64,000 nucleotides of DNA from Campylobacterales bacterium (GTDB taxonomy: Bacteria; Campylobacterota; Campylobacteria; Campylobacterales; QNZT01). Both the position numbers and the translations under genes were made by a program. Below are positions 12,159 through 46,622 of the stretch, one piece after another. Within the stretch, counting starts at the first letter, position 1. Each line of letters begins with the position of its first letter. The stretch is from contig JAJRSK010000021.1 in assembly GCA_024278835.1 (NCBI GenBank), positions 5,306 to 69,305 of the forward strand, read 5' to 3'. The notes under the pieces were generated by a model. The model searched no databases and was not told where the DNA came from. It saw only the letters and a program-made list of their open reading frames with translations.

Positions 12159-12174
12159 TGCTACCAAAGTTGCA
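12159..12174. promoter_or_regulatory. Crp/Fnr-type box TGCTACCAAAGTTGCA between divergent MFS-ppsA-pcm and PFOR promoters
   Basis: 16-bp inverted repeat. It lies 21 nt from TATCAT (12196-12201, plus strand) and 20 nt from TATAAT (12138-12133, minus strand). Confidence 0.6.
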
Positions 12175-12219
12175 CGTATTAAAATCCAAGAGTAGTATCA
12201 TGATAGTGGAGGAGTTTTT

Positions 12220-15200
12220 ATGTCTAGAAAAATTATGGATGCCAATGAAGCAGTTGCCAGAATTGCTCATAAAACCAATGAAGTGATTGCTATTTATCCT
12301 ATTACTCCTGCATCAAGTATGGGAGAGTATGCAGATTTCTATTCTGTGCAGGGAAAAGAAAATGTCTTTGGAACTGTTCCAAAGGTGATAGAGATGCAGA
12401 GTGAGGCGGGAGCTGCTGGGGCAATACATGGAGCTCTTCAGAGTGGTTCTTTAACAACAACTTTTACCGCTTCACAGGGGCTTTTGTTGATGCTTCCAGA
12501 TATGTATAAGATTGCAGGGGAGCTAACTTCTACAGTTTTCCATGTAGCAGCTCGTTCTATTGCTGCACAGGCACTTTCGATATTTGGTGACCATACAGAT
12601 GTGATGCAGGTGAGGCAGAGCGGATTTGCTCTTTTAAACTCTTGTGATGCACAAGAGGCACAGGATTTTGCTCTTATCGCACAAGCTACAACGCTAAAAG
12701 CTAGAGTTCCAATTCTTCACTTTTTTGATGGTTTTCGTACCTCTTCGGAGTTAATGGGAGTGGAGACGATAGGTGATGAGATTATTCGTAAGATGATTGA
12801 TATCAAGCTTTTAAATGAACATAAAGCAAGGGCACTTGATCCTGAAAAACCAGTGATAAGAGGAACTTCACAAAATCCTGATTTTTATTTTCAAGGGCGA
12901 GAGAGTGTAAATCGTTATTATGATGCTTTTCCAGCTATCTTGCAAGAGAACATGGATAAGTTTGCAAAATTGACTGGTAGAGAGTATCATCTATTTGAGT
13001 ATGATGGCAGTAAAAATCCTGACAGAGTGATTGTTATCATGGGTAGTGCTTCAAAAACAGCTAAGGAGAGTGTAAAAGAACTCGTAAAAATGCATGAAAA
13101 TGTAGGTGTTGTAACAGTTAGACTTTTTCAACCATTTGATAAGGAGACTTTTTTAAAAATTATTCCACAAAGTGTGCAAAAGATTGCTGTGCTAGATCGT
13201 ACGAAAGAGGTGGGCTCTTCTGGTGAGCCACTTTATTTGGATGTAGTAGAGGCATTTAGCCAGAGTGTGATACATAAAAAAAGAGAAATGCTGCCTGTTA
13301 TCATCGGTGGTCGTTATGGGCTCTCTTCAAAAGAGTTTACGCCTGCGATGGTTAAAGCGGTGTTTGATGAGTTAAAAAATGATGAACCGAAAAATCCTTT
13401 TACGGTTGGTATCATAGATGATGTGACGCATCTTTCACTTTTCTCTGATAAAGATTTTATACTAAAAAATGATAAAACCACACAAGCACTTTTTTATGGT
13501 TTGGGTTCAGATGGTACGGTAGGGGCAAATAAGAATTCCATCAAAATTATTGGAGAAGATAAAGGACTTTTTGTTCAGGGGTATTTTGTGTATGACTCTA
13601 AAAAGGCAGGGTCTATGACGATTTCACATTTGCGGTTTGGTAAAGAGCTGATTGAGTCAACTTATCTTATCGAAAAAGCTGATTTTATCGGAGTTCATCA
13701 ATTTGTCTTTTTAAAAAAATATGACATTTTAAAACATGCTGTAAAAGGAGCAACAGTTCTTATAAATAGTCCTTATGAGATAGACGAAACATGGGATAAA
13801 CTTCCAAGAATTGTTCAAGAACAGATTATAAATAAAAACTTAAAACTTTATGCGATAAATGCTTACGAGGTGGCAAAATCTTGTGGCTTACATAGGCATA
13901 TAAACACTGTCATGCAGACTGCTTTTTTTGCACTAACAGATATCATAGAAACCAAAGAAGCGATACAAAAGATAAAAGAGTCTATACAAAAAAGTTATGG
14001 GCTTAAAGGTGAGATTGTAGCCCGTTTAAATTATTGTGCTGTGGATCATACCCTGACCGAGCTACAAGAGATTAAAGTTCCTCAAAGTGTTAGTTCTGAT
14101 ATAGAGATGATAGAAGCACTTAAACTAAAAGCAGAAGATCAATTTTTAGAAGAAGTTACAGCTAGATTAGTTGCAAAAAAGGGAGATGAAATTCCTGTAA
14201 GTCTGGTTCCAGCTGATGGTACATGGCCACTTGGAACAACGCAATATGAAAAAAGAAATATTTCACTACAAGCACCATTGTGGGATTCGACTATCTGTAT
14301 ACAGTGTAACCGATGTACTGAAGTTTGTCCGCATGCCGTGATAAGATCTAAAGTATTTAATCCAAGTTTGCTTGAAAGTGCACCAGAAGAGTTTCAACAT
14401 ATAAAAGCCAAAGGCAAAAAATTTACTGGCAATGATTTTACGATACAAGTATCAGTAGAAGATTGTACAGGGTGTACGCTCTGTGTGGAAGAGTGCCCTG
14501 CTATTAACAAAGAAAATCCAGATAAAAAAGCGATAAATATGCAGGATATTGAACCAAGAATTAAAGAATCAGTACAAAACTGGGACTTTTTTATGAAGAT
14601 TCCTGAGTATGATAGAAGCAAGCTTGATGTGAGTAAAACCAAAGAGGCGCAACTATTAAGACCTCTTTTTGAATTTTCAGGTGCCTGTGCGGGATGCGGA
14701 GAAACACCGTATTTAAAACTCCTTTCTCAACTTTTTGGAGATAGATTGATGATAGCAAATGCCACGGGATGCTCTTCTATCTATGGTGGAAATTTACCCA
14801 CAACACCATGGGCAACAGATGAAAATGGCAGAGGGCCTGCATGGTCAAACTCTCTGTTTGAAGACAATGCGGAGTTTGGATTGGGATTTCGTACTACCGT
14901 AGATAAACAAAATATATTTGCCAAAGAGCTTCTTTTAAAACTAAAATTCGAAATTGGTGAAGAGTTAGTAGAAAAAACTCTAAATACAGAGCAAAAAAGT
15001 GAAGAAGGTATCAAAACACAAAGAGAAAATGTAGAAAAAATCAAAGAAAAACTTTCAACTATAAAAGGAGATGATGCAAGACTTCTTGAGGGAGTGCTTA
15101 GTTATCTTATCGTTAAATCCATTTGGGCAGTTGGTGGTGATGGTTGGGCATATGATATAGGTTACGGTGGATTAGACCATGTTTTGGCAAGTGGTGCAAA

Positions 15201-15795
15201 TATCAATATTTTGGTTTTAGATACAGGTGTGTACTCCAACACAGGAGGACAAACTTCCAAAGCGACACCACTGGGTGCAGTAGCAAAGTTTTCGGCAGAG
15301 GGTAAGAACAAGGTACAAAAGGATTTGGCACTTCATGCTTTGGATTATGATGATGTTTATGTGGCAAGAGTGGCATTAGGAGCAAATGATAAGCAAACGC
15401 TTAATGCTTTTTTAGAAGCCCAGTCTTATGATGGTCCCTCACTTATTATCGCTTATAGTCATTGTATCGCACATGGATATGATTTAAAATTTGGTATGAA
15501 ACATCAAGATATGGCAGTAAAATCAGGACTTTGGCCACTATTTCGTTACAATCCAGCTTTGAAAGAGGAGGGTAAAAATCCATTTTCTTTAGATTATAAA
15601 GAGCCAAAACTTCCAGTAGAAGAGTATATGTATAGTGAAAATCGTTTCAAAATGGTTGAGAAAATAAATCCTGAGCTTGCAGAAACATTTATAAAAAAAG
15701 CAGATGAATTTGCCAAAAGAGAGTGGACTCGCTATCAAGACTTAGAAAATTCTGGGAATTTGACATTTAAAAAAGATAAGATATGCCGAACTTAA
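12220..15795 (+). CDS. nifJ: Pyruvate:ferredoxin (flavodoxin) oxidoreductase, single-polypeptide NifJ type
   Basis: 1191 aa. Two ferredoxin-type CxxCxxCxxxCP motifs (CIQCNRCTEVCP, CTGCTLCVEECP), the GCGETPY and GGDGWAYDIG TPP-binding blocks. Confidence 0.95.
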   Translation: MSRKIMDANEAVARIAHKTNEVIAIYPITPASSMGEYADFYSVQGKENVFGTVPKVIEMQSEAGAAGAIHGALQSGSLTTTFTASQGLLLMLPDMYKIAGELTSTVFHVAARSIAAQALSIFGDHTDVMQVRQSGFALLNSCDAQEAQDFALIAQATTLKARVPILHFFDGFRTSSELMGVETIGDEIIRKMIDIKLLNEHKARALDPEKPVIRGTSQNPDFYFQGRESVNRYYDAFPAILQENMDKFAKLTGREYHLFEYDGSKNPDRVIVIMGSASKTAKESVKELVKMHENVGVVTVRLFQPFDKETFLKIIPQSVQKIAVLDRTKEVGSSGEPLYLDVVEAFSQSVIHKKREMLPVIIGGRYGLSSKEFTPAMVKAVFDELKNDEPKNPFTVGIIDDVTHLSLFSDKDFILKNDKTTQALFYGLGSDGTVGANKNSIKIIGEDKGLFVQGYFVYDSKKAGSMTISHLRFGKELIESTYLIEKADFIGVHQFVFLKKYDILKHAVKGATVLINSPYEIDETWDKLPRIVQEQIINKNLKLYAINAYEVAKSCGLHRHINTVMQTAFFALTDIIETKEAIQKIKESIQKSYGLKGEIVARLNYCAVDHTLTELQEIKVPQSVSSDIEMIEALKLKAEDQFLEEVTARLVAKKGDEIPVSLVPADGTWPLGTTQYEKRNISLQAPLWDSTICIQCNRCTEVCPHAVIRSKVFNPSLLESAPEEFQHIKAKGKKFTGNDFTIQVSVEDCTGCTLCVEECPAINKENPDKKAINMQDIEPRIKESVQNWDFFMKIPEYDRSKLDVSKTKEAQLLRPLFEFSGACAGCGETPYLKLLSQLFGDRLMIANATGCSSIYGGNLPTTPWATDENGRGPAWSNSLFEDNAEFGLGFRTTVDKQNIFAKELLLKLKFEIGEELVEKTLNTEQKSEEGIKTQRENVEKIKEKLSTIKGDDARLLEGVLSYLIVKSIWAVGGDGWAYDIGYGGLDHVLASGANINILVLDTGVYSNTGGQTSKATPLGAVAKFSAEGKNKVQKDLALHALDYDDVYVARVALGANDKQTLNAFLEAQSYDGPSLIIAYSHCIAHGYDLKFGMKHQDMAVKSGLWPLFRYNPALKEEGKNPFSLDYKEPKLPVEEYMYSENRFKMVEKINPELAETFIKKADEFAKREWTRYQDLENSGNLTFKKDKICRT

Positions 15796-15822
15796 AGATT
15801 TGGTAATAAAAAATAGGAGGAT

Positions 15823-16269
15823 ATGATGAAGTTAGAAAACACGATGGTAATCGTAGCAGATTTAGGTGAGTTAAAGGTATATAGTGTGAAAAAAAGTGAA
15901 GGCTTGCTTGGCAACGAGATGAAAACTTCTTATACCTTGGAAGTGCTCAACAACATAGGATATATAGATGCACATAAAAAAATGGGTGAAGTGATGAGTG
16001 ATAGTGCTGGTAATTTCATGGGCTCTGCAGGAGAAGAGCATAACCGTGAAAATGAAAGAAAAAAGCGTTCACTTAAAGAGATTGCAGATGATATAGACAT
16101 CATTGTGGCAAATGAAAAACCAAAACAATTTTTTTTATCATTTCCAAAAGATATGCTTTCTAAACTAGTGGATGGTTTGAGTCAAAATACAAAGAATGTT
16201 TTACATAAAACCGTTTCAAGTAACTTAGTCAAAACGGATAAGAGTAAAATTTTGGCATACTTTGAGTGA
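15823..16269 (+). CDS. Hypothetical protein (possibly host-attachment / baeRF-like family)
   Basis: Strong RBS (AGGAGG). The family assignment comes only from weak recollection of the N-terminal IVADxGxxKVY pattern. Confidence 0.35.
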   Translation: MMKLENTMVIVADLGELKVYSVKKSEGLLGNEMKTSYTLEVLNNIGYIDAHKKMGEVMSDSAGNFMGSAGEEHNRENERKKRSLKEIADDIDIIVANEKPKQFFLSFPKDMLSKLVDGLSQNTKNVLHKTVSSNLVKTDKSKILAYFE

Positions 16270-20605: not shown

Positions 20606-22000
20606 TCAAATCCATATCTCTTCACCTTCTTTAACGATATGCACTTTATTTGGTAGTTTAGCTTTGATTGCCTTTTTAAAAATCTTTTGTTTCTCTTTTT
20701 CACCGTGGACGAGGTATATATTGCCTAGTGTTTCAAAATTTTCCATCCACTCTATGAGTTCACTTTGGTCTGCATGTGCTGAGAAACCATTGATGGTGTG
20801 TATTCTTGCCTTGACAAGCACTTTTTCATGATAGAGTTTGACCCATTTTGCACCCTCAACGATTTTCCGTCCTAAAGTTCCATAGGCTTGAAAGCCTACA
20901 AAGATAACACTATTCTTTGGATTCCAGATACGATTCTTGAAATGGTGCAGTATCCTCCCACCCGTACACATGCCAGAGCCTGCAATGATGATACAACTCT
21001 CTTCTTCATTGATTTTTTTGGATTCGTCTGGCTTTAATGTGTAGTGCACATAAGGAAAATCAAATACTGTACCATCTCTCTCTAAGATGTCATTGCAGCA
21101 CTTACTTAATTCATCATGATAGAGATTATAAAGATTGGTAGCGCGAATTGCCATAGGTGAATCTAAATAAATTTTGCACTTAGGAAGTTCCCCCTCATCA
21201 TAGAGCTGTTTTAAAATACAGAGGATTTCTTGTGTCCTTTCAATAGCAAAGGAGGGGATTAAAACGCTACCTTGTGAGAGTAATGTCTCTTGTATGACTT
21301 TTTTAAATTCCTCTTCACTGTCCTTGATGCCTTTGTGGTTTCTATCTCCATAGGTAGACTCTATATAGAGGGTATCTGCTTTTTTAACAAAAGTAGGAGA
21401 AGGCATCACCATGTCATTGTGATTTCCTAAATCACCTGAAAAGACGATACTTTTTTTCTGAGAATCTTCAATAAAGTCTATCTCAATCGTCGCAGAATCC
21501 AAGATATGACCAGCATTACGAAATGTTGCGGTGATGTCTTTTTCTATGGATATAGGTTTATCATAAGTAGGATATTGAACTGGTAAATTATAGAGAGCTT
21601 TTACATCATCGACGCTGTAGAGAGGTGCGGTTACTTTAGCTTCTGCACCACGACGCTGTGCTTTTCTATAATGGGTTTTAAACTCTTCTTGCATAAGATT
21701 GGCACTATCAAGTAGTACAATTTCTGCCAAGTCCATGGTAGAACGAAGCGCGATGATTTTGCCTTGAAATCCTTCTTTAACAAGTTTTGGTATACGTCCA
21801 ACATGATCTAAATGTGCATGTGTGATAAGTAAAATATCAATTTCTTTCGGGTCAAAACCAAAAGGTTGTAAGTTTTTCTCTTCATTTTTGCCCTGAAACA
21901 TTCCACAATCTACCATAATCTTTTTGCCACTTTTTAGTGTCAGCAGATGACAAGAACCTGTCACTACCTCTGCCGCACCAAATGATTGCATCATCGCCAT
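20606..22000 (-). CDS. MBL-fold beta-CASP metallo-hydrolase (RNA-metabolising type)
   Basis: HAHLDHVG motif plus the beta-CASP and C-terminal RNA-specificity regions (GFSAHAD). Confidence 0.8.
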   Translation of the reverse strand: MAMMQSFGAAEVVTGSCHLLTLKSGKKIMVDCGMFQGKNEEKNLQPFGFDPKEIDILLITHAHLDHVGRIPKLVKEGFQGKIIALRSTMDLAEIVLLDSANLMQEEFKTHYRKAQRRGAEAKVTAPLYSVDDVKALYNLPVQYPTYDKPISIEKDITATFRNAGHILDSATIEIDFIEDSQKKSIVFSGDLGNHNDMVMPSPTFVKKADTLYIESTYGDRNHKGIKDSEEEFKKVIQETLLSQGSVLIPSFAIERTQEILCILKQLYDEGELPKCKIYLDSPMAIRATNLYNLYHDELSKCCNDILERDGTVFDFPYVHYTLKPDESKKINEEESCIIIAGSGMCTGGRILHHFKNRIWNPKNSVIFVGFQAYGTLGRKIVEGAKWVKLYHEKVLVKARIHTINGFSAHADQSELIEWMENFETLGNIYLVHGEKEKQKIFKKAIKAKLPNKVHIVKEGEEIWI

Positions 22001-22677: not shown

Positions 22678-22693
22678 TGTTACTTAAGTGGCA
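22678..22693 (-). promoter_or_regulatory. Crp/Fnr-type box (minus read TGCCACTTAAGTAACA) upstream of the STAS/beta-CASP pair
   Basis: 21 nt upstream of TACAAT (22656-22651). An RBS GGGAG precedes the ATG. Confidence 0.6.
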
Positions 22694-22694
22694 T

Positions 22695-23774
22695 TTAAAA
22701 TAGTTTTCCAATTTTATAAAATCCAAACCAGTACAATATCCCTCCCAAGAGCATCACCCCTCCAAAACATGGTAAAAGATCGATAAACTCAGTTCCTCTA
22801 TAAAAGATACTTTCTGCCCCTTCTATATAGTAGCGAAGAGGGGAGAAAAGTGAAAGTGTTTGAAAAACTGGGTGCATGGCATAAACAGGTGTCCAAGCAC
22901 CACTAAGAAATATAAGAGGCATCATGATAACGATAGAGAGTTGGGCAACTTGCATGATATCTTTTGAAATAGCAGCAACAAAAAGACCGATACCAGCACT
23001 GGAAAAAGCATATAAAAATGTCAAAAGTATAAATGCCCAAAATGAACCATTCATAGGCGTATCAAAAGCACTCAACAGCACAAACCCCAATGCTAAAACT
23101 GTGCCAGCGGTTACGATGAGCACCTGAGAAAGACTTTTTGCTAAAATCATAATCTTTGGATTGATTGGCATCAAAAGCATGATGTCCCATGTACCTTCCT
23201 CTTTCTCTTTGACAAAAACGATAGCGGTGAGGATGATAACTAACATTGTGATGATAGAGAGTAATTCTGTTAGTGCCATAAAAGTATGGTTGTTGGCATT
23301 TTCATTGAAAAGTTTGTGTGTTTTAAATGTTATGGGTAACTTTATGGATTGAAAATCCATCACGATGTTTTGTATATATGCCAATGTTGTGAAGCTTTGT
23401 GAAGCGGCAGTAGCATCAAGCAGTAGATTTAGCTGTGTATTTTTTCCTTCTCTGAAATCTTTTTCAAAATTACTATCAAATACCATTCCCACGATAACTT
23501 CTTTGTTAAATATCGCTTGACTAAGTGCTTTTTGCGAAAGGTATTTGTGAGGAGAGGTAAATTCTGGTTTATGCAGATGAGAGAGAATCTTTTGACTGAT
23601 ACCTCCTCCTGTCATATCTACATATCCTATGGTGACATTGCGTGGTTTTATCTCTATTCCTTCACCTGCTATGTAGATATCTAATGTAAAAGAATAAAGC
23701 ACTACAAGCACTAACATAATTGAACGCATAAAACTAACAAGCTCTTTTCCCAGTACGATAAAAAAGGTATGCAT
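22695..23774 (-). CDS. ABC-2 type transporter permease
   Basis: N-terminal TM, periplasmic loop, C-terminal ABC-2 membrane domain. Paralogous to the next gene. Confidence 0.8.
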   Translation of the reverse strand: MHTFFIVLGKELVSFMRSIMLVLVVLYSFTLDIYIAGEGIEIKPRNVTIGYVDMTGGGISQKILSHLHKPEFTSPHKYLSQKALSQAIFNKEVIVGMVFDSNFEKDFREGKNTQLNLLLDATAASQSFTTLAYIQNIVMDFQSIKLPITFKTHKLFNENANNHTFMALTELLSIITMLVIILTAIVFVKEKEEGTWDIMLLMPINPKIMILAKSLSQVLIVTAGTVLALGFVLLSAFDTPMNGSFWAFILLTFLYAFSSAGIGLFVAAISKDIMQVAQLSIVIMMPLIFLSGAWTPVYAMHPVFQTLSLFSPLRYYIEGAESIFYRGTEFIDLLPCFGGVMLLGGILYWFGFYKIGKLF

Positions 23775-24895
23775 TATTTCATCTCCTTTTTCAAAAGAAG
23801 TACACCACTTGTAAAAAATAGGAGTAAAAATCCAACTAAAATAGCCAAATAAAGTATGATTTTAGAAGAGTCTAGCCCCTGACCTATAAGAAAAGTATCG
23901 TAGAGGATATGGTTATAGTACATGACAGGAAACATATGTGCTTCTATGTAGGATTCTCCCTGCATAGAAGAGATAGGCATCAGCATGCCTGAGTAGAGAA
24001 ATCCAGGTAAAATAGTCACAGTAACAGTTAAAACGACAGCGACTATCTGTTTTTTTGTGATGACAGAGATGAGCATACCTATAGATAAGCTTATCATGAT
24101 ATATAATTCACTCGATAACCAATAGAGCATAAAACTCCCACGAAAAGGTACTTCAAACAGATAGAGTGCCCATAAAAGAAGTATAAATATGTTGATTGAA
24201 TGTAGTAAAAAAACAGGAAGTAATTTTGCTAAAAGAAACTCTCCCTTGCTAAGTGGTGAAGCATAAAAGTTAAAAATTGTTCCTTTCTCTTTCTCTCTTA
24301 CAATAAGAAGTGCTGTTAAAATAGCAGGTGCAACTAAAAGTACAAGACCGATAAGTCCAGGGATGATAGCATCCTCATCTCTCATCGCTTGATTAAAAAG
24401 TGTACGAGTATTTAGCACAATCATGCCTTTTTGTTTCATGCCTATAGATGATATGGCTTCATTTGCCGCAGAAAATACCGCCCCTTGTATATAACTCTCT
24501 ATCGTTGTGGCTCGTGTGGGAAATGCTGCGTCTACAAAAACAGCAAGTTCACTTTTTTGTCCATGTAACAAATGCTTCTCAAAAGAGCTAGGGATGATGA
24601 TAATTGCATCGGTTTTTGCTCTTTTTATCTCTCTCAATGCATCATCTTCAGCCATTTGTGTAAGCCTAGCATTGAAGTATTGGCTGTGTTCAAATTTGGA
24701 AATTAACTCTTTTGAGTATTTGCTTTGATCATTGTCTATGATGAGGACTCTAGCATGGGAAACATCCATGCGTATGCCATACCCAAAAAGAAGCACTATC
24801 ATGCTCGGCATAAGATAGACCATCATGATAAGGCGGGTACGAAAAAGTTCGATAAACTCTTTGAGTATATATGCTTTGATACTCAACCATTTCAT
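23774..24895 (-). CDS. ABC-2 type transporter permease
   Basis: Same architecture as 22695-23774. Overlapping stop/start. Confidence 0.8.
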   Translation of the reverse strand: MKWLSIKAYILKEFIELFRTRLIMMVYLMPSMIVLLFGYGIRMDVSHARVLIIDNDQSKYSKELISKFEHSQYFNARLTQMAEDDALREIKRAKTDAIIIIPSSFEKHLLHGQKSELAVFVDAAFPTRATTIESYIQGAVFSAANEAISSIGMKQKGMIVLNTRTLFNQAMRDEDAIIPGLIGLVLLVAPAILTALLIVREKEKGTIFNFYASPLSKGEFLLAKLLPVFLLHSINIFILLLWALYLFEVPFRGSFMLYWLSSELYIMISLSIGMLISVITKKQIVAVVLTVTVTILPGFLYSGMLMPISSMQGESYIEAHMFPVMYYNHILYDTFLIGQGLDSSKIILYLAILVGFLLLFFTSGVLLLKKEMK

Positions 24896-26517
24896 GATTT
24901 ACTCCTGTAAAAGTCAAGAAAAATCTCTTCAAAAGTTTTTGCATTTGCATGTGTTGCATAAAGATTTTTAACTGTGTCATCAGCAATTTTTTTACCATCT
25001 TTGAGTAAGACTACTCTATCACAATACTCCGCTTCACTCATGTAATGTGTGGTGATGAGGATAGAAATTCCCCACTTCTCTTTTAGTTTTCTAAGTATTT
25101 TCCAAAACTGTGCTCTTGCTATGGTATCAACACCAGAAGTTGGTTCATCGAGAAATAGCACCAAGGGTTCATGCAATAGTGCAGCAGCTATGGAAAATCT
25201 TTGATTGACACCCAATGGAAGATTGCTAGGAAAATTATCCATATAAGTTAAAAAACCAAGTTCATTGGCATATAGTTTGATTCGTTTAAGTGCAATATCT
25301 GTTGGAATTTTATGCATACTTGCAAAGTAGAGGAGATTTTCCTTTACAGTCATATCTTTATAGAGTGCAAAATGTTGACTGACATATCCGATTTTTGATT
25401 TTAAATCCTGTCTATCTTTTCCACTTTTTATCGTTTTACCAAGTAGTTGGAGTTCCCCCTCATCTATGGGGTAGAGTCCAAGCAACATCTTGATAAAAGT
25501 GGTTTTACCAGCACCATTAGCACCCAAAAGTCCTAATATTTCACCTTTTTTTAACTCCATATCTATCTTGTCATTAGCAATAAATTTACCAAAATATTTA
25601 CTGATAGCTTTAGCTTCCATCACAATTTTAGGGATTTTTTCCTCTTTTTCTCTTTTGTGAATATCAATATTTTGTAATGTTTTATGTTTTTTTAAAGCAT
25701 TGACAAAAAAGAGCCCTTCAAGTGTTGGCTTGGCTTTTGGGGCATTTAAAGATTGAAGAGAGTAAGTTCTTTTTTCAAATGAAAAACAGTGAATATCTTT
25801 ACACGAATGCTCTTGATAAGTATAAGGACGCACCGAGTCTATGAGTGTCTCTGTCGTGCCTCTTGCGATAATTTCACCTTCATCAAAAAGTAATACTCTG
25901 TCCATCTTTGCGGCTTCTTGCATATAAGCCGTACTCACCAAGATGATAGATCCTTCCTCTTTTCGTATCGTATCAAGTATCTCCCAAAGTTCAAGTCGGC
26001 TAAGTGGGTCAACACCTGTTGTAGGTTCATCAAGTATCAATAGTTTTGGTCGGTGTAAGAGTGTGCATATAAGAGAGAGTTTTTGCATCATACCCCCACT
26101 AAGTTTTCCAGCTTCCCTATCGATAAAGTTGCTTAACCCAGCCATGTGAAGTAATTTTTTTCTATATTGTTGATGTGAATTATCTTGTATAAGACCATGG
26201 ATATCAGCAAAAAATTGTAAATGCTCAGAAACAGTTAAAGTATCATACAATACCAATCCGATTCCCTGTGGCATCAAACCTATTTGGGATTTTATTTTTT
26301 CTGCTTCTTTGGGTGAATGATAGTGATAGTTATGATAAACAATCTCGCCATCAAAATGAAGTACACCAGCGATGGCATGCATCAAAGAACTTTTTCCAGC
26401 CCCATCAGCCCCGATAAATCCTATGATTTCACCAGAAGATGCAGAAAAAGAACTTTTTTTGAGAGCTACTTTTTTGTTATAGCTAAGGGTGACATCTCTT
26501 ATCTCCAAATCAGACAT
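24892..26517 (-). CDS. ABC transporter ATP-binding protein with two fused ATPase domains (YbhF-like)
   Basis: Two Walker A motifs (GADGAGKSS, GANGAGKTT), two signature motifs (LSGGMMQK, LPLGVNQR), two Walker B motifs (LILDEPT, LFLDEPT). Confidence 0.9.
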   Translation of the reverse strand: MSDLEIRDVTLSYNKKVALKKSSFSASSGEIIGFIGADGAGKSSLMHAIAGVLHFDGEIVYHNYHYHSPKEAEKIKSQIGLMPQGIGLVLYDTLTVSEHLQFFADIHGLIQDNSHQQYRKKLLHMAGLSNFIDREAGKLSGGMMQKLSLICTLLHRPKLLILDEPTTGVDPLSRLELWEILDTIRKEEGSIILVSTAYMQEAAKMDRVLLFDEGEIIARGTTETLIDSVRPYTYQEHSCKDIHCFSFEKRTYSLQSLNAPKAKPTLEGLFFVNALKKHKTLQNIDIHKREKEEKIPKIVMEAKAISKYFGKFIANDKIDMELKKGEILGLLGANGAGKTTFIKMLLGLYPIDEGELQLLGKTIKSGKDRQDLKSKIGYVSQHFALYKDMTVKENLLYFASMHKIPTDIALKRIKLYANELGFLTYMDNFPSNLPLGVNQRFSIAAALLHEPLVLFLDEPTSGVDTIARAQFWKILRKLKEKWGISILITTHYMSEAEYCDRVVLLKDGKKIADDTVKNLYATHANAKTFEEIFLDFYRSKS

Positions 26518-26545
26518 AGCTACATTTCTAATCGTCTGTTATAAA

Positions 26546-27703
26546 TCATAACGCTGGTAACGCATCCATAGATTTTGGTAATCCTTTACCATCCATGCTG
26601 ATAACTCCGATTGCAGGAATTCCCAATTTTAGTAAAGGATCTATCTTTAAAGGCTTAAGATGGACAGCATATACACGCTGTATTCGGTCACTTCTGACAC
26701 TAACTTCTTTAGGTGTAAATTCTGCTTTCATTGCGATATTTACCACTTTTGCAGGGATGGGTCGATGCGGACTAGCATCTAAAAATATAACTGCTCTATC
26801 GCCTAACTTAATTTTTCCATTTTGTAAAGTATCGACAAATATTTTAAGATAGAGCGAATGAGGGTCTAAAAGTGTTGCTATGGGCATACCCGCTCCAACC
26901 ACTTCACCGATATTGGCTATTTTATCGACGACATACCCATCTATCGGCGATTTTAACACCATCTCATCAAGCATTGCATCTATACCACTTTTCGATGCTT
27001 CAAGTGCGGTGATGTTTTCTTTGAGTGAGGCAAGCATATATTCCAAAGCTTCTAGATTTTTTTGTGATGCTTTAGCTTCTGACATCGTTGCTTTGGAAAG
27101 TTCTATCATCGAAGTAACTTCTTTTTGTTTCTCTTTGAGTGCTTGGAGTTTGTTGTTTTCTGTATCTAGTTTTAGTTTTGCAAGTTCATAACTATGTAGT
27201 TCTATAGAGTTACTTTTATACAACATGCGACTTCTCTCAAAATCTTTTTTTGCTTGTTTGTATAACTGTTTTTGGATGTTTATATTGTTTAAAAGCCCTT
27301 TAAGTTGTGATTTTGTGGCAGAAAACTGACTTTCTGCTTTTTTAAGAGACAAGGGAATAGTTTTTTTTGATATCTCAAGTTCTAGTTTTTTAGCTTCATA
27401 TATCTTTTGTTGTGCGCGTATCTGTGCCTCTATCTGTGTTTTTTTCGCTTGTTGTTCAGCGCTTTTGAGTTTGGCAATTAGCATCCCTTTTTTGATGAAG
27501 CTACCATCATCTACCATTACAATCTCCAGACGACTTGGATATTTTGTATTAAGATTAATCAAATCTCCATCAATGCGTCCAGTTGCCTCTATCAGGTTTT
27601 GCGGTAATTTTTTAGGATGCAGTTTTGCATAAATCATCACAGAGGCACTCACAAGTAAAAGAGCCACAAGAACCCAAATCCAATATCTCTTTATCTTTTG
27701 CAT
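26546..27703 (-). CDS. HlyD-family secretion/adaptor protein (YbhG-like)
   Basis: TM anchor, long coiled coil, beta-barrel C-terminus. The ATG at 27703 has better RBS spacing (GGAGAG N5) than the GTG at 27709. Confidence 0.8.
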   Translation of the reverse strand: MQKIKRYWIWVLVALLLVSASVMIYAKLHPKKLPQNLIEATGRIDGDLINLNTKYPSRLEIVMVDDGSFIKKGMLIAKLKSAEQQAKKTQIEAQIRAQQKIYEAKKLELEISKKTIPLSLKKAESQFSATKSQLKGLLNNINIQKQLYKQAKKDFERSRMLYKSNSIELHSYELAKLKLDTENNKLQALKEKQKEVTSMIELSKATMSEAKASQKNLEALEYMLASLKENITALEASKSGIDAMLDEMVLKSPIDGYVVDKIANIGEVVGAGMPIATLLDPHSLYLKIFVDTLQNGKIKLGDRAVIFLDASPHRPIPAKVVNIAMKAEFTPKEVSVRSDRIQRVYAVHLKPLKIDPLLKLGIPAIGVISMDGKGLPKSMDALPAL

Positions 27704-27752: not shown

Positions 27753-27768
27753 TGCTATATATGTAGCA
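27753..27768 (-). promoter_or_regulatory. Crp/Fnr-type box (minus read TGCTACATATATAGCA) upstream of the HlyD-ABC operon
   Basis: 21 nt upstream of TATAAT (27731-27726). Confidence 0.5.
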
Positions 27769-27807: not shown

Positions 27808-27823
27808 TGCTACTTTAGTACCA
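27808..27823 (+). promoter_or_regulatory. Crp/Fnr-type box TGCTACTTTAGTACCA upstream of the rhodanese gene
   Basis: 21 nt upstream of TATGAT (27845-27850). Confidence 0.5.
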
Positions 27824-27906
27824 TTTAAAACTATAGTTTTTTAGTATGATTTGATTACCTTTTGATATTTTATCAATCAAAGGAAAAAACTACTAAAGGG
27901 GATGTC

Positions 27907-28290
27907 ATGATAAATGAATTATCAACTATCATAGCAAACGATGCAAAAAAAGAGAATTTAGGACATGTGGATTTACATAAAACAAGAGAGTTGTTGATGG
28001 ATGTGGGTGCTATGTTGCTAGATGTTCGACCAAGTGCAAAAGTAGAGGGCGAAAATGCACAAGAAGCAGGCATAATCAATACTTACTTTACACCTTATGA
28101 GGATTTTCATAGCTATATAGATGTATTACCTTCAGATAAGAGTGCAGTAATCGTTGTAGCTTGTTTAAAAGGTTGGTTTGCAAATCGTATCATGGGTTAT
28201 CTGGAGATGATGGGTTATAAAAATGTTTATGTACTTGATACTACAATCGTAGATCTTATCGAAGTACATCATGCACACGCAGATAAATAA
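27907..28290 (+). CDS. Rhodanese-like domain protein
   Basis: Rhodanese fold blocks (LLDVRP ... VVACLKGWFANR active-site Cys loop). The ATG at 27907 follows an RBS GGGG. The longer ORF from 27862 overlaps the promoter's leader. Confidence 0.65.
   Translation: MINELSTIIANDAKKENLGHVDLHKTRELLMDVGAMLLDVRPSAKVEGENAQEAGIINTYFTPYEDFHSYIDVLPSDKSAVIVVACLKGWFANRIMGYLEMMGYKNVYVLDTTIVDLIEVHHAHADK

Positions 28291-37873: not shown

Positions 37874-37901
<28 letters not shown>
36645..37901 (-). CDS. MgtC/SapB-family membrane protein with DUF4010-type extension
   Basis: N-terminal MgtC-like TM block (GLQRE...AGTRTFALIA) followed by many further TM segments. The start overlaps the 3' end of the ATPase gene. 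Confidence 0.65.
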
Positions 37902-41782
<3,881 letters not shown>

Positions 41783-41830
41783 GCTAACTCCTTTGAATAA
41801 AGATTATAGCAAATAGCGACAAAAGGCTTA

Positions 41831-41846
41831 TGCTACTTAGGTGGCA
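41831..41846 (-). promoter_or_regulatory. Crp/Fnr-type box (minus read TGCCACCTAAGTAGCA) upstream of the antiporter::ATPase gene
   Basis: 22 nt upstream of the extended -10 TGCTATAAT (41811-41803). An AAGGAG RBS precedes the ATG at 41782. Confidence 0.65.
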
Positions 41847-41867
41847 TCTATGTGTTTTAAAAGGACT

Positions 41868-42530
41868 CTATGATTGTTTGTCTATAAGTTTTTGTACATT
41901 TTTTATCAAAATATTTTTATGGGCTAATTCCATAATCCCTTCACTTTCTAGATGATGTAGGTGGCGTTCAACAACATGTCGCACAGTACCTATAAGCTTA
42001 GCGATTTCACTATGGGAGAGACCATGTAGGAGGTTGTATTTTTGTGGGTTTTTAGAATCCAAGTTTTGTAAAAGTAGTTTAACCAATCTCTCTGCTGTCG
42101 TATGAAGAGAAATATCTGTTGCTAACTCTTCGATATGGCGCATCTGTGAGGCAAGATAAGGAAAAAATTTCTTATTGAAAGTTTCACTATTTTTAATCCA
42201 CGTTCGTACTTTTTCTATGGGAATTTTTAACAGTTGGATATCTTCCAAAGCTTCGTATATGACGTCATGGGGTTTGGCATCTAATAGGGTAATGGTATCA
42301 ATCATATCCCCAGATTTTAAGATGAAAATCGTCTGCTCTTTTGCATTGTTGAGATTAAGTTGATAGCTTTTTACTCTTCCGCTAATGACGATATAAAAAT
42401 AGTGCAACAATTCATTTCCACAAAAGAGTGGTTCTTTTTTCTTAAAAGTAACGAGCTTTGCACATTGATTTATCTCTTGTTTTAGTGGTTCATCTAAACC
42501 CTGAAAGAGATAAAGATTATAAGTATTCAT
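41868..42530 (-). CDS. Crp/Fnr-family transcriptional regulator
   Basis: cNMP-binding-like beta-roll followed by the C-terminal HTH SHSEIAKLIGTVRHVVERHL. No FNR-type N-terminal Cys cluster. Confidence 0.85.
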   Translation of the reverse strand: MNTYNLYLFQGLDEPLKQEINQCAKLVTFKKKEPLFCGNELLHYFYIVISGRVKSYQLNLNNAKEQTIFILKSGDMIDTITLLDAKPHDVIYEALEDIQLLKIPIEKVRTWIKNSETFNKKFFPYLASQMRHIEELATDISLHTTAERLVKLLLQNLDSKNPQKYNLLHGLSHSEIAKLIGTVRHVVERHLHHLESEGIMELAHKNILIKNVQKLIDKQS

Positions 42531-42637: not shown

Positions 42638-43483
42638 TTAGTGAACACTTACATAAATCAATACATCGCTTGAAAGACTTTTCAAAAGTGAAAACGAGAC
42701 AGAATCTGACAATATAGAATGTTCTACACTAGAACACAAAACAGTCAAATCAAAATTACCACTCTCAATATATCCTACTAAATCATCTTCAACACAAAGA
42801 GATTGTTCTATGAAGTCACCTCTTAGTCCACTCTCTTTTTTTAATGCCTCAAAGGCTAATTTTTGATTTTTTATCAATTCTTGATTGATTTGGGCATCTA
42901 TGATAGGTGCAGAAGTTGGCACACCTAAATAATCCACATCCATCAGCGATAAATCAACGATATAACGATAATCATGCAAAAGAAATAAATCATTTTTTTC
43001 AAATAATCTTTCAGCAAAGTCGATACAAGCTTCCGTAGTTTCTCCTAAATCAACTGGCAGCACCACATTTTCATAGGACTTAAAATCATTTTTAATAATC
43101 AAGACAGGCAGATGGCTCTTTTTTGCCAATTTTTCTGTGATGCTATCATGATAAGCTGTGACAATCAATATATCTTTTGTTTCTCTTGTTTGTGTTAACA
43201 CCCTATCAACCGTATCATCAATAAACACCAAAATAGCACTTTGCCTTGAACTATCAAGTGCAGTTAGCCGTTTTTGTATCTCTTTCTTGATTTTTTCTTT
43301 GTCCAATACCTCATCTTTTATACTATCCTCTGAACGAAAATAATCAGGCACATCAAATAGCGGCTCCTCATGTACATAGAGTATCTCTAAAACCGCTTTC
43401 TCTTTTGATGCTAACTCGAGGGCTCTTTCAAGCACAGTATCAGCCCCATTAAAATCATTTAAAACAGCAATTATTTTTTGCAT
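42638..43483 (-). CDS. Tandem-domain universal stress protein
   Basis: Two UspA-like halves. Clear paralog of 51659-52474 (shared LEVLYVHEEP(L/M)FDVP(D/E)YF, AILVFI(D/N)DTVDRVL). Confidence 0.7.
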   Translation of the reverse strand: MQKIIAVLNDFNGADTVLERALELASKEKAVLEILYVHEEPLFDVPDYFRSEDSIKDEVLDKEKIKKEIQKRLTALDSSRQSAILVFIDDTVDRVLTQTRETKDILIVTAYHDSITEKLAKKSHLPVLIIKNDFKSYENVVLPVDLGETTEACIDFAERLFEKNDLFLLHDYRYIVDLSLMDVDYLGVPTSAPIIDAQINQELIKNQKLAFEALKKESGLRGDFIEQSLCVEDDLVGYIESGNFDLTVLCSSVEHSILSDSVSFSLLKSLSSDVLIYVSVH

Positions 43484-44400
43484 TACACACTCCTTTTACT
43501 TTTAAGATAGTGAAACATGGATATCTCACCAAAAAATGGACCAAAAAGATTGAGCACCGGCACAAAGTTAAAAAGTGCTGTGATAAAACTGATGACCCAT
43601 GTTGCCAAGCTATGTTCTTTTAACTTTTCTCTATCTACATCTTCAAACAACATAGAAGCTGCGTCATATCTAAAGGTATCTTTTACCAACCAGACCCACA
43701 AGGCAATGAGCACCAAAAAGTTAACAACAGGAATGAAAATCAATGGAAAGATTAGCAATGAAACAAGAAGGTAAATGAAACTATCCCGTATCGTGTAGCC
43801 CATAGATTTAAAGGTGTGTACTTTCACAACTTGGTCATCTGGAAAATGTCTCTTTTCCACCCCTTCAAGAATAGGTTTACTAAATATACTCACGATAAAT
43901 ACCATGCTTACAACGATAGCACTATAAACGAGATAAAAACCGATAAAATAACCTATCCCTTTTTCTATGGTCTCAAAGGGAAGCCATGTTAAGAGTTTTA
44001 AAAATTCATGATAGATATAATCACTCTTAAAAAACCACACTACAGACCAAACAATAGCACTACCAAGTGCCACAAATACAGAAAAAGAGGTATACTTTTC
44101 TTTAGAAACAGTTCGCAAGATGAGATTCCCGAAAAATGCAAAGACTAAGGCAAAGGTCAACAAAACCAGTTGAAACCATAAAAATGCCGAAAGCATCCAT
44201 GCCCCATTTGACCGTACCATTGAAAAAGGCACAAGTTCCAGTATATAAGCACCAAATGAGACAATCTCACCCCAAAAAAGATAGGCGATAAAAGCCCACA
44301 ATCCACTTATGATAAGACCGCCGACTAGCGCATACTTCATCACATCCCAGCGAAGTATCTCTTTAAATCCAAAAATAACCGCATGCATAACATCTCTCAT
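43483..44400 (-). CDS. EI24/CysZ-like integral membrane protein
   Basis: Multi-TM protein with the C-terminal pattern (IPVVNFLV...W, NFVPVLNLFGPFFG) reminiscent of the CysZ/EI24 family. Confidence 0.5.
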   Translation of the reverse strand: MRDVMHAVIFGFKEILRWDVMKYALVGGLIISGLWAFIAYLFWGEIVSFGAYILELVPFSMVRSNGAWMLSAFLWFQLVLLTFALVFAFFGNLILRTVSKEKYTSFSVFVALGSAIVWSVVWFFKSDYIYHEFLKLLTWLPFETIEKGIGYFIGFYLVYSAIVVSMVFIVSIFSKPILEGVEKRHFPDDQVVKVHTFKSMGYTIRDSFIYLLVSLLIFPLIFIPVVNFLVLIALWVWLVKDTFRYDAASMLFEDVDREKLKEHSLATWVISFITALFNFVPVLNLFGPFFGEISMFHYLKSKRSV

Positions 44401-44454
44401 AATATCTCCCTTTAATCATATACAAAAATTATATCAAAGAGAGAGGATATCATT

Positions 44455-44470
44455 TGCTACTTAGGTGGCA
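44455..44470 (-). promoter_or_regulatory. Crp/Fnr-type box (minus read TGCCACCTAAGTAGCA) upstream of EI24-Usp
   Basis: 21 nt upstream of TATAAT (44433-44428). Identical in sequence to the box at 41831-41846. Confidence 0.65.
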
Positions 44471-44483
44471 TTTTTGTTAAGCT

Positions 44484-44678
44484 TTATAAAAAACCAAGTT
44501 CTTTTAAAATAGGTCGAATAGACATAGATATTTCAGCAAGCTTTTCAGGAATGATACGCATAGCATCATCTTCATGTCTCCACTCTTCTAGTCGCTGATA
44601 CATCAAGTTTTTCTCATCTTCAGAGATGGTTGATGACTTTTTTACAGCGTCTTTGATTTTTTCAATTTTTTTTTGCAT
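44484..44678 (-). CDS. Small helical hypothetical protein (64 aa)
   Basis: ORF directly downstream of the APC permease in the same orientation. No family recognised. Confidence 0.4.
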   Translation of the reverse strand: MQKKIEKIKDAVKKSSTISEDEKNLMYQRLEEWRHEDDAMRIIPEKLAEISMSIRPILKELGFL

Positions 44679-44688: not shown

Positions 44689-46005
44689 TTAATTTTTAAT
44701 ATCTTTCGCAGTAGGCAATAGCCACTGTCTCGAAATAATTCTTTTTGTGATGAGCCTCAGTACTATTTCTAGTATAAATGCTAATACAAATCCTCCAGCG
44801 ATAAAATACCCCACATGTGGAATATGTTTAGAAGTATACATCAGCGCCAAAATAATAGCAATGACTATCGTCAATATAGCAAGTACGACGAACACTTTTG
44901 ATGCACCAGTTTTTTCAATCTTAAAAAGATGTCCTATATGGACAAGTGCGTGGATAAAAAGTATAGATATTGAACCGATGGCGGCGATTTCATCTAACTT
45001 AAAAAAGAGTACAAATAGGATGATAAAGAGTGTACTGATGATTAACCCCTCACTACTGTGCCAGACATTTCTCTCGTAGGCTGCAGGCAATTCACCGTTT
45101 TTTGCCATCTGATAAGTAACATTGGTGACTGCGTAAAGATTTGCATTGATAGAGGAAGCAGTTGAGATGAGTGCTGCTAGCGCCATGATGGTAAATCCCA
45201 CCTGACCAAACGCAGGTTTTGCTGCCTGGGCTAGTGCATAATCTTGTGCTTTGATGATTTCATCCAATGAAAGATTTCCAAAAACGGCAAAAGTCACAGC
45301 CACATAAAGCACCATTACGAAGCCAATGGAGATAAACATGGCTTTTAACATAGTCTCTGATGGATTAGCCATATCTTCTGCGGTGTTTGTGATAACACGA
45401 AACCCCTCATATGCAAAAAAAGTTAGTGCAATAGAAGAAAAAACATTCATCACAGGTGGGGCATCTTTGAGTGCTAAAAGTTCTGGTTTTATATAAAAGA
45501 AGACAGTTACCGTAAAGATGATGATGATTGAAAGTTTGATAATCACTATGATATTTTCACTTCTTGCAATGGATGAACTTCCTGATAGATTAATAAGCAC
45601 AAAAAAAAGAAGTATCAAAACACTATAGGTATTTGCCCAAAACAGAGAGTACGACCCCATCATCATAGAGGCGTACGTACCAAATGTTTTAGCCACCATC
45701 GCAATAGCCACCATCGCAGAAAGATAAAATAAAACTGACATAGAACCAGAAAAAATACCTTCCCCATAACCTTGTACTAAATACTCTACAATTCCACCAC
45801 GGCTAGGATAGGTTGAAGCTAATTTGGCAAGAGAATAGCCACTAAGAAGTGCGATAATACCTCCTAACAAAAAAGATATCCATACTAAATTACCAGCAAT
45901 CGCCCCAGCTTCTCCAAGCAGTACAAAGATGCCTGCCCCAACCATAGAACCAATACCTAAAAAGACAGCACTCCAGAGCCCAAAAGCTTTTTGATTTTTT
46001 TGCAT
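44689..46005 (-). CDS. APC-superfamily amino acid permease
   Basis: GIGSMVGAGIFVLLGEA motif and 12-TM profile. The ATG at 46005 lies 1 nt after the HdeD-like stop. Confidence 0.8.
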   Translation of the reverse strand: MQKNQKAFGLWSAVFLGIGSMVGAGIFVLLGEAGAIAGNLVWISFLLGGIIALLSGYSLAKLASTYPSRGGIVEYLVQGYGEGIFSGSMSVLFYLSAMVAIAMVAKTFGTYASMMMGSYSLFWANTYSVLILLFFVLINLSGSSSIARSENIIVIIKLSIIIIFTVTVFFYIKPELLALKDAPPVMNVFSSIALTFFAYEGFRVITNTAEDMANPSETMLKAMFISIGFVMVLYVAVTFAVFGNLSLDEIIKAQDYALAQAAKPAFGQVGFTIMALAALISTASSINANLYAVTNVTYQMAKNGELPAAYERNVWHSSEGLIISTLFIILFVLFFKLDEIAAIGSISILFIHALVHIGHLFKIEKTGASKVFVVLAILTIVIAIILALMYTSKHIPHVGYFIAGGFVLAFILEIVLRLITKRIISRQWLLPTAKDIKN

Positions 46006-46006
46006 A

Positions 46007-46551
46007 TTATTTAGCCATTTTTGACCACATTGAGCCACCTATCAAGAGTGCTATCCCGTCAAAAAAGAGGCTTATGCCCACAAAAAGTCCGACAAGGTAC
46101 ATAGAACTAAATGGCCAATTTATCAAAAAGAGAACACCAAGACCAAAGGAGAGAAGGGCATTAATCACCCACATAATCCATCCTCTATCTGGATACATTG
46201 TCGAAGCCAGTCCAAATCCTGCAAAAGCATCCATAAAGAAATAGATAGCCAACAAGAGTCCTATCGTACCCACACCACTTAGAGGATAAAACAACATGAA
46301 AGTGCCACCCCAACTAGAATAAAACTTTTAAGCCACCCTAACCAGTCACTTTTATCTGTGATATAGGTAAAATACCCAGCCATCACACCTGCAAAAATCA
46401 TAAGATAGGTGACAAAAACTTCCGTCGCCAATGTCATATAGATAGGATAAATAATCCCTATCAACCCTAGTATGATAAATATTACACCCGAAATTTTGGC
46501 ATATTTTCCGAACTTTTCAAAAATCTCTTCACCCTTTGGATAACTCCACAT
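46007..46551 (-). pseudogene. HdeD/DUF308-like membrane protein split by a frameshift
   Basis: Two overlapping ORFs (46279-46551 and 46007-46297) together reconstitute one DUF308-repeat protein. The frames switch within 46279-46297. Confidence 0.6.
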
Positions 46552-46606
46552 AGTAAATCTCCTAAATTTTATTTGTGAAATTGTAACAAAGAGTGAAAAT
46601 ATATTT

Positions 46607-46622
46607 TGCAACTTAAGTGGCA
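46607..46622 (-). promoter_or_regulatory. Crp/Fnr-type box (minus read TGCCACTTAAGTTGCA) upstream of HdeD-like/APC
   Basis: 21 nt upstream of TACAAT (46585-46580). An RBS TAGGAG precedes the ATG at 46551. Confidence 0.6.

Follow-up and report, generated by a model that had tools for sequence, protein, structure and literature searches.

The 64-kb stretch of contig JAJRSK010000021.1 from a Campylobacterales bacterium that was analysed here (the window; ~93% coding) raises the question of which protein reads a 16-bp palindrome, hereafter the box, that recurs in front of seven of its operons, and what that protein does there. An earlier inspection of the letters and their open reading frames (ORFs), hereafter the sequence-only reading, had proposed a Crp/Fnr-type regulon. 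We consider it probable that the box is the operator of the protein encoded at 41868..42530 on the minus strand, which would represent a new Crp/Fnr subfamily and act from position -41.5 as a class-II activator of a proteostasis and general-stress regulon.

The box and its distance from the -10 hexamer

The seven 16-mers reported by the sequence-only reading are all present, and a search of the window for TGCTAC-N4-GTAGCA with up to two mismatches returns nine matches against 1.79 expected, a number that none of 100 shuffles reached; seven of the nine are these very sites. The strict form TGCYAC-N4-GTRGCA matches twice, against 0.02 expected. A symmetrised position weight matrix (PWM) scores the seven boxes at 17.7-24.3 and the runner-up in the 64 kb at 14.7, a test that is partly circular, as the matrix was built from the same seven sites, the score gap being clear nonetheless. 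Once over-extended ORF starts are corrected, 7/7 boxes are intergenic, which upholds the claim that the motif recurs in intergenic DNA before operons; the extra pattern or PWM matches (9625, 49183, 53367, 38003 and others) lie in coding DNA, lack a spaced -10 and were taken as chance. As for the proposed consensus TGCTAC-N4-GTRGCA, its palindromic character stands, but positions 4 and 13 are degenerate and the element is better written TGCnAC-N4-GTnGCA, i.e., 16 bp with dyad symmetry, TG...CA ends and a 6-N4-6 geometry.

Downstream of each box lies a hexamer of the form TATCAT, TACAAT, TATAAT or TATGAT, at a gap of exactly 21 nt at six promoters and of 22 nt at 41831, followed at all seven by a ribosome-binding site (RBS) and a start codon. 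Box 1 (12159..12174, plus strand, TGCTACCAAAGTTGCA) faces PFOR across TATCAT (12196-12201, gap 21), and on its opposite strand TATAAT (12133-12138, gap 20) faces an MFS gene. Box 2 (22678..22693, minus strand, minus read TGCCACTTAAGTAACA) is followed by TACAAT (22651-22656, gap 21), Box 3 (27753..27768, minus strand, minus read TGCTACATATATAGCA) by TATAAT (27726-27731, gap 21) and Box 4 (27808..27823, plus strand, TGCTACTTTAGTACCA) by TATGAT (27845-27850, gap 21). Box 5 (41831..41846, minus strand, minus read TGCCACCTAAGTAGCA) stands 22 nt past the stop codon of the candidate regulator and precedes TGcTATAAT (41803-41811, minus strand, gap 22); Box 6 (44455..44470, minus strand) has the same minus read, with TATAAT at 44428-44433 (gap 21), and Box 7 (46607..46622, minus strand, minus read TGCCACTTAAGTTGCA) precedes TACAAT (46580-46585, gap 21). 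Given a frequency of 0.015 hexamers of -10 quality per intergenic position in the window, the chance of meeting one at gap 21 or 22 in either orientation is 0.059 for one site and 2.5e-9 for the seven together. A -35-like hexamer was sought at the seven window promoters and none was found, the best match being 2/6. If the hexamer is taken as -12 to -7, the box covers -49 to -34 and is centred at -41.5, and all seven window promoters (7/7) appear to have the class-II layout, with a site near -41.5 that adjoins or replaces the -35 element, relative to transcription start sites (TSS) predicted from the -10. The boxes at 41831 and 22678 also have -10-like hexamers on their opposite strand at a gap of 22-23 nt (41803-41867 and 22694-22740, plus strand), oriented so that transcription would enter the regulator gene and an ABC-2 gene antisense, from their 3′ ends; the hexamers could be antisense promoters or chance occurrences in AT-rich flanks.

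The same arrangement is found beyond the window. Metagenome contigs were scanned for TGCYACYTWRGTRGCA-N21-TANAAT, and at least 120 fragments matched, almost all of 26-48% GC and most from one sample series, a concentration that is not the pattern of chance matches. The matches, at least 122 in number, amount to at least 115 non-identical promoters, and an ORF starts 13-190 nt past the hexamer, nearly always with an RBS, in 107 of the 122 listed matches. Since this pattern fixes the gap at 21 nt, spacing was re-tested on boxes defined without a -10 requirement, the pattern-selected sites being excluded: 10 of these have their hexamer at 21 nt and 4 at 22 nt, over a background of ~1 per bin. The fixed class-II spacing claimed by the sequence-only reading is thereby seen at 7/7 promoters in the window and as a peak at 21-22 nt in relatives. 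At divergent promoters a single box is flanked in both directions by a -10 at 21 nt (L010; L064 and L107, between Hsp20 and YfdX genes; L099, between rhodanese and DUF308 genes). About a quarter of the metagenome box promoters (e.g., L048, L051, L119, L041 and L127) additionally display a short inverted repeat of variable sequence that brackets the -10, such as CAGCG-TATAATtt-CGCTG or GTTGA-TACAATt-TCAAC, with a mean arm of 1.90 vs 1.28-1.47 in controls.

These features bear directly on what kind of element the box is. At sites 12159 and 46607 it resembles a sigma-54 promoter with -24/-12 elements, TGCCAC-TTAAG-TTGCA being one base away from TGGCAC-N5-TTGCA, but we give this reading a negligible chance and rejected it: the -24 GG, invariant in such promoters along with the -12 GC, is present in none of 20 independent boxes, 19 of which have C at position 3, the box is dyad-symmetric and works in both orientations, and a sigma-70-type -10 follows at the fixed 21-22 nt. 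Moreover, the start codons of the metagenome promoters listed are 60-230 nt past the box, and clustering of the ORFs in the 120 listed fragments links no enhancer-binding protein gene to it. It is also very improbable that the palindrome is a structural element, whether a hairpin, a dispersed repeat or a weak terminator for the preceding gene. Its 6-bp stem and 4-nt loop, and its frequent position behind a stop codon (that of the regulator or of grpE), would suit such an element, but non-pairing arms are common (C/A in 15/115 and T/G in 21/115 listed), the preference for pairing at positions 4/13 is modest, the AT-rich stem comes with no consistent T-run, and the flanks are unconserved save for the spaced -10. 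The box also occurs between divergent genes, where there is nothing to terminate. The frequent non-pairing arms, together with the absence of any matching Rfam family, led us to reject the hairpin or terminator reading.

The candidate Crp/Fnr-type regulator and its genetic linkage to the box

A phmmer search finds no Crp-family gene in the window other than that at 41868..42530 (minus strand), in line with the single nearby Crp/Fnr gene of the sequence-only reading. Its 220-aa product matches cNMP_binding (PF00027; 50.3 bits vs a cutoff of 27.5) and HTH_Crp_2 (PF13545; 40.6 bits vs 27), and structure prediction (mean pLDDT 78.7) gives a beta-roll with strands in residues 25-104, a long C-helix (116-142) and a winged helix-turn-helix (173-196). 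The top Foldseek matches are all CRP, GlxR, Clr, NtcA, CooA or FNR (E ~1e-16, identity <=26%), and the model thus points to a Crp fold and to membership in the Crp/Fnr superfamily. At 36-48 bits vs cutoffs of 180-266 for the NCBIfam subfamilies FtrB, CRP, YeiL, NtcA and Fnr, the protein falls below every one of them (e.g., 36 bits vs 228 for Fnr and 43 bits vs 266 for CRP), and assignment to a previously uncharacterised Crp/Fnr subfamily is the best reading.

The predicted DNA-binding surface sets this protein apart from the two classical members. FNR has an E--SR recognition motif and binds TTGAT-N4-ATCAA, and CRP binds TGTGA-N6-TCACA; TGCnAC-N4-GTnGCA differs from both sites, and the atypical half-site noticed by the sequence-only reading is real. 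The recognition helix of the regulator, G181-T-V-R184-H185-V-V-E188-R189, was aligned to the E. coli CRP and FNR sequences, and reads R-H-V-V-E-R vs R-E-T-V-G-R in CRP and V-E-T-I-S-R in FNR. Forty-five box-linked homologues form two subclades, one with R-H-V-(V/I)-E-R at 45-82% identity and the other with R-K-V-V-N-R at 35-45%, both of which keep two DNA-contacting arginines and lack the canonical Glu; this non-canonical but conserved helix fits the non-canonical half-site. The residues of CRP that contact cAMP are E72, R82, S83, T127 and S128, and the first three correspond to T79, H88 and D89 in the regulator. The [4Fe-4S] centre of FNR is held by three N-terminal Cys and one central Cys; the regulator has no N-terminal extension, and its homologue alignment has no conserved Cys. 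Examined for the features of the FNR subgroup (cysteines, E--SR, TTGAT site) and of a cAMP-dependent CRP, the regulator shows neither set. The K-E-Q-T loop between beta4 and beta5 is conserved in both subclades, and its Glu aligns with CRP E58 and FNR E87 of activating region 3 (AR3), the part of those proteins that touches sigma region 4 at class-II promoters.

Many orthologues (35-85% identity) occur in Sulfurovum, Sulfurimonas and other Campylobacterales, where the annotation of the protein goes no further than 'Crp/Fnr family', and a match at 82% identity is found in a metagenome-assembled genome (MAG) labelled Sulfurospirillum. A MAG contig (L001) holds two paralogues (P0010 and P0012; 74% and 72% identical to the window protein), and the family is therefore duplicated in some lineages. 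In 8 of 14 genome loci (L002, L003, L005-L009 and L134), the regulator gene has a near-consensus box no more than ~150 nt away, mostly directly after the stop codon, as in the window; in L010 it is 1 kb off. The order of regulator stop codon and then box is kept in L003, L005-L008, L134 and at least 13 metagenome loci. In the cultured Sulfurovum sp. NBC37-1, the regulator gene (386478-387146 of AP009179.1) is followed, ~28 nt past its stop codon, by the box TGCAACCAAAGTAGCA, then by 22 nt, TATAAT and two hsp20 genes. Sulfurimonas features a box upstream of three hsp20 genes, an SPL-like gene and nnrS, and in other genome loci it stands upstream of HlyD, SpoIIAA-like, tandem Usp and YfdX genes.

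Seen from the box, the linkage is equally apparent. Among the 120 box fragments listed (765 kb in total, mean 6.4 kb), 29 carry a regulator homologue, at least 13 of which end within ~120 nt of the box, whereas a single-copy gene of a ~2 Mb genome should turn up in ~0.3% of such fragments. An unbiased clustering of all 721 ORFs in these fragments gives Hsp20, GrpE, the Crp-like regulator (30 loci), GGDEF, DnaK and YfdX as the most recurrent families, the regulator being the only DNA-binding one among them. The link between regulator and box that the sequence-only reading drew from a single locus is thus seen in 8/14 genome loci and 29-30/120 listed fragments. That some other dimeric transcription factor binds the box, the Crp-like gene being merely a syntenic neighbour of hsp20 and stress genes, is decidedly unlikely. 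The linkage is indeed only genetic, the downstream gene differs between lineages, and 75% of the box fragments listed lack the regulator, although this is expected for a dispersed regulon; but no other transcription-factor family is enriched in the clustering, and neither the TetR of the window, which heads its own RND efflux operon, nor its OmpR-type response regulator with its kinase recurs with boxes. The regulator, moreover, stays box-adjacent while the neighbouring target changes, from hsp20 in Sulfurovum and Sulfurimonas to a P-ATPase in the window and a SpoIIAA-like gene in L002, and the box geometry and the atypical recognition helix both fit Crp/Fnr.

The regulator gene of the window begins 107 bp after an EI24-Usp operon, across a gap without a box, and may be partly co-transcribed with that operon. 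General autoregulation was considered and rejected, as a box directly upstream of the regulator is found only in L002 and, in the window, transcription from a box could enter the regulator gene only by running on from EI24-Usp. Genes for membrane diguanylate cyclases (4HB_MCP + GGDEF) are present in 25 of the 120 listed box fragments (including L021, L026, L041, L048, L061, L085, L095, L106, L118, L119, L123 and L127), often beside dnaK or yfdX and in mixed orientations. GGDEF-derived c-di-GMP as the effector was set aside as speculation, the scattered positions and orientations of these genes fitting a large paralogous family together with synteny.

Predicted targets in relatives and in the window

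Clustering and Pfam assign the genes downstream of the metagenome boxes to Hsp20 (at least 41 promoters), DnaK (at least 34), YfdX (at least 13), ClpB (at least 4), EI24/CysZ, rhodanese, SpoIIAA-like and DUF1931 (at least 2 each), HtpX, DUF308 and DUF505 (at least 1 each) and other singletons (at least 4). Chaperones (Hsp20, DnaK, ClpB, HtpX and YfdX) would accordingly constitute the predicted core of the regulon in relatives, a point absent from the sequence-only reading. The boxes of dnaK lie between the grpE stop codon and dnaK, and hence mark an internal promoter. In one lineage group, the box-dependent dnaK promoter is followed by a leader of 155-190 nt (L026:8039-8217; L048:10802-10973, minus strand; L051:1762-1953; also L079, L085, L115, L127, L066 and L125) with two conserved hairpins and compensatory changes (9/18 predicted pairs changed on both sides). 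It has no Rfam match and may be an undescribed structured 5′ untranslated region, possibly a thermometer or regulatory leader.

A subset of the box promoters carries a second operator. The core of HAIR, the HspR operator, in the form TTKAGT-N7-ACTMAA occurs 15 times in 1 Mb vs 0.85 expected, and 11 of the 15 adjoin a box; eight of these 11 start 52-53 nt past the box start, or ~9 nt beyond the -10, which the other three overlap. The repeat at box promoters, CTTTAGT-N7-ACTAAAG, is a variant of the HspR operator (L134:10750-10768; L003:10834; L005:2358; L059:10292; L107:1121; L010:11600; L064:14015; L076:8518; L018:793; L044:3251; L057:6238). Its fixed position supports the hexamer as a real -10 and means that a separate repressor site is already there, which suggests a dual control of some box promoters by the Crp-like activator and HspR. 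The box itself matches neither HAIR (CTTGAGT-N7-ACTCAAG) nor CIRCE (TTAGCACTC-N9-GAGTGCTAA), of which HAIR-like elements are found upstream of grpE in L025 and CIRCE-like elements upstream of hrcA-grpE in L100 and L080. A cascade from HspR to the regulator was rejected as a general mechanism, a HAIR-like site standing upstream of the regulator in one lineage only (L010, L064 and L107) among 43 loci. As most regulator genes are preceded by neither box nor HAIR site, their product is probably controlled at the protein level.

Within the window, Pfam confirmed the gene calls of the targets that had been predicted, and 5 or 6 of the 7 box-gene pairs are kept in other genomes. Box 1 precedes an operon of PFOR and a Host_attach/baeRF-like gene (12220-15795 and 15823-16269, plus strand), the sole PFOR match in the sampled loci being L113, itself truncated. 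The MFS-PpsA-Pcm genes (7901..12113, minus strand) are a possible divergent target of the same box, with a short leader after the -10; their gene calls hold, but their proposed place in the regulon is a weak case, as its sole basis is the opposite-strand TATAAT at gap 20, not 21-22. Box 2 faces a SpoIIAA-like/STAS gene and a beta-CASP RNase gene (22020-22625 and 20606-22000, minus strand), and the pairing of box and SpoIIAA-like gene is kept in 3/3 loci (L002, L113 and L120). Box 3 is paired with an HlyD gene, an ABC ATPase gene and two ABC-2 permease genes (22695..27703, minus strand; box-HlyD kept 2/3, in L001 and L120), and Box 4 with a rhodanese-domain protein (27862..28290, plus strand; kept 3/3, in L081, L088 and L099).

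Box 5 faces a Na+/H+ exchanger::P-type ATPase fusion and an MgtC/DUF4010 gene (37874-41782 and 36645-37901, minus strand); no conserved pair of box and antiporter-fused P-ATPase was found in the loci sampled. The fusion itself is unusual, being a single 1302-aa ORF in which a complete P-type cation ATPase is joined with a Na+/H+ exchanger domain (residues 19-387). The targets of Box 6 are an EI24/CysZ-like membrane protein and a tandem Usp protein (43483-44400 and 42638-43483, minus strand); the box-EI24 pair is kept in 3/4 loci (L029, L110 and L132), the fourth being cut by a contig end, and a box-Usp pair occurs in L002. A second tandem-Usp gene (51659-52474, plus strand) has a 221-bp upstream intergenic region without a box, and hence not all Usp genes of the window belong to the predicted regulon. 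Box 7 precedes a DUF308/HdeD-like gene, an APC permease gene and a 64-aa ORF (46279-46551 and 46007-46297, 44689-46038, and 44483-44677, minus strand), with a box-DUF308 pair in L099, where the intact homologue has 185 aa. The DUF308/HdeD-like target consists of two overlapping ORFs (46279-46551 and 46007-46297), apparently one split gene, and the split may reflect a frameshift, pseudogene decay or a sequencing error. The 64-aa ORF (44483-44677, minus strand), which lies between the APC permease gene and Box 6, is 69% identical to one in the same position at L110:9698-9850 and is likely a real small protein.

Activation or repression, and known systems

In the mechanism that we propose, a dimer of the regulator would bind TGCnAC-N4-GTnGCA centred ~41.5 bp upstream of the transcription start, stand in for the missing -35 element by supplying its contacts, and activate the housekeeping RNA polymerase in the class-II manner of CRP and FNR. 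Its regulon in the window would comprise PFOR, the SpoIIAA-like/beta-CASP pair, the HlyD/ABC-2 exporter, the rhodanese, the antiporter::P-ATPase with MgtC, EI24-Usp and DUF308-APC, and the core across Sulfurovum, Sulfurimonas and related Campylobacterales would be hsp20, dnaK (from the internal grpE/dnaK promoter), clpB, htpX and yfdX, forming a positive heat-shock and general-stress layer on top of the HspR/HAIR and HrcA/CIRCE repressors. The signal would be neither cAMP nor an FNR-type Fe-S cluster and would probably act on the protein; temperature could serve, as could unfolded proteins or the titration of chaperones, or a ligand such as a metal.

The same Crp-like protein could instead act as a repressor that blocks RNA polymerase from -49 to -34 and is inactivated by stress, as are HspR, HrcA and CtsR, and this alternative we hold to be unlikely. 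Crp/Fnr proteins can repress, the box overlaps the usual -35/UP region, and the heat-shock control known in this phylum is by repressors (PMC7464140). Activation is nonetheless favoured by the one-bp precision at -41.5 over more than 100 promoters and across lineages, which is a mark of class II, the operators of repressors being usually looser. It is favoured further by the single boxes that serve a -10 21 nt away on both sides, by the conserved AR3-like loop, and by the separate HAIR-like operator that several promoters already have over the TSS or the -10.

Several points weigh against activation by this protein through the box, or narrow what can be drawn from it. The promoters of Campylobacterota are generally without a -35 element, and its absence alone is therefore no proof of activator dependence. 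No box was found in the DNA retrieved around the regulator genes of the distant loci L011-L013. Position H185 of the recognition helix varies (H, K or N) with no visible change in the box, and for this reason the specificity determinant is not pinned down. The family counts, from the at least 41 promoters of Hsp20 downwards, come from related populations that were sampled repeatedly and are not independent, with near-consensus boxes favoured and one sample series dominant. PFOR and the antiporter::P-ATPase, finally, are candidate targets on the strength of the box itself. On the broader proposal, that this Crp/Fnr protein is the master positive regulator of heat shock and proteostasis in chemolithoautotrophic Campylobacterota, with HspR at the start site and neither cAMP nor Fe-S as its signal, we see the chances as evenly balanced.

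Among known systems, class-II activation by E. coli CRP and FNR offers the closest architectural parallel: a dimer of the Crp/Fnr fold, a dyad site at ~-41.5 in place of the -35 element, and a conserved acidic residue in the AR3 loop. The half-site TGCnAC, in contrast, is neither TTGAT (FNR) nor TGTGA (CRP), and the helix R-H/K-V-V-E/N-R departs from V-E-T-I-S-R and R-E-T-V-G-R; the cysteines of FNR and the cAMP-contact residues of CRP are missing here, and the predicted regulon consists of chaperone and stress genes, unlike the respiratory and catabolic genes of FNR and CRP. NssR recognises TTAAC-N4-GTTAA. The Nss proteins (NssR of C. jejuni and NssA/B/C of Wolinella), the Crp/Fnr regulators already described from Campylobacterota, act through FNR/Dnr-type sites (TTGA-N6-TCAA) on genes of nitrosative stress and denitrification (PMC11539149); compared by their description, they share the phylum, the superfamily and the role of stress-gene activator with the regulator, but have other sites and no chaperone targets. 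The RedB subgroup of Crp/Fnr was dismissed, its motif being a non-palindromic AT-rich 12-mer unrelated to the box.

Precedents for stress regulation by this superfamily come from other phyla. DdrI of Deinococcus and SdrP of Thermus are broad stress regulators of the Crp family that bind DNA without cAMP, and a ddrI mutant is heat-sensitive (PMC11253593). Stress regulators of the Crp family can therefore function without cAMP, and the window regulator likewise lacks the cAMP-contact residues; DdrI differs in its CRP-type TGTGA-N6-TCACA site and its phylum, and no fixed class-II chaperone regulon is described for it. RcfB of Lactococcus lactis is a Crp/Fnr activator that, with its ACiD-box, is required for acid-inducible promoters, reportedly including groESL (PMC6027394, citing Madsen et al. 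2005). As far as that account goes, it provides an earlier case of a chaperone operon under positive Crp-type control, but in a Firmicute, with a different cis element and a small regulon, and with no control of dnaK, clpB or hsp20 described in it. In the open-access literature, searched on the motif, on Crp/Fnr proteins of Sulfurimonas or Sulfurovum and on heat-shock control, we found no prior description of the motif or regulon.

Heat-shock transcription in bacteria is usually under the control of RpoH or of dedicated repressors (HrcA, HspR and CtsR). RpoH (sigma-32) is the functional analogue, exerting positive control over dnaK, clpB, ibp/hsp20 and htpX, but it is a sigma factor with its own -35/-10, whereas a transcription factor and a housekeeping-type -10 would be at work here. 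HspR/HAIR and HrcA/CIRCE, to which heat-shock control in Campylobacter and Helicobacter is attributed (PMC7464140), govern the same gene classes (dnaK, clpB and chaperones) in the same phylum, but as repressors with different operators, whereas the box sits at the position of an activator site. If the proposal is true, a class-II activator at dnaK, clpB, hsp20 and htpX would add a third logic of heat-shock control, in a phylum known only for repressors, and the box, as a defined cis element, would allow stress regulons to be predicted in vent and sediment bacteria that are abundant but hard to work with, such as Sulfurovum and Sulfurimonas. The pairing of an R-H/K-x-x-E/N-R helix with a TGCnAC half-site would likewise extend the Crp/Fnr recognition code, and the proposal is directly testable in the cultured Sulfurovum sp. 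NBC37-1. The class-II promoter architecture is known already from CRP and FNR; as new, the system is best classed as a putative Crp/Fnr subfamily that would have an operator of its own and govern a proteostasis and general-stress regulon that was not expected, conserved over several genera.

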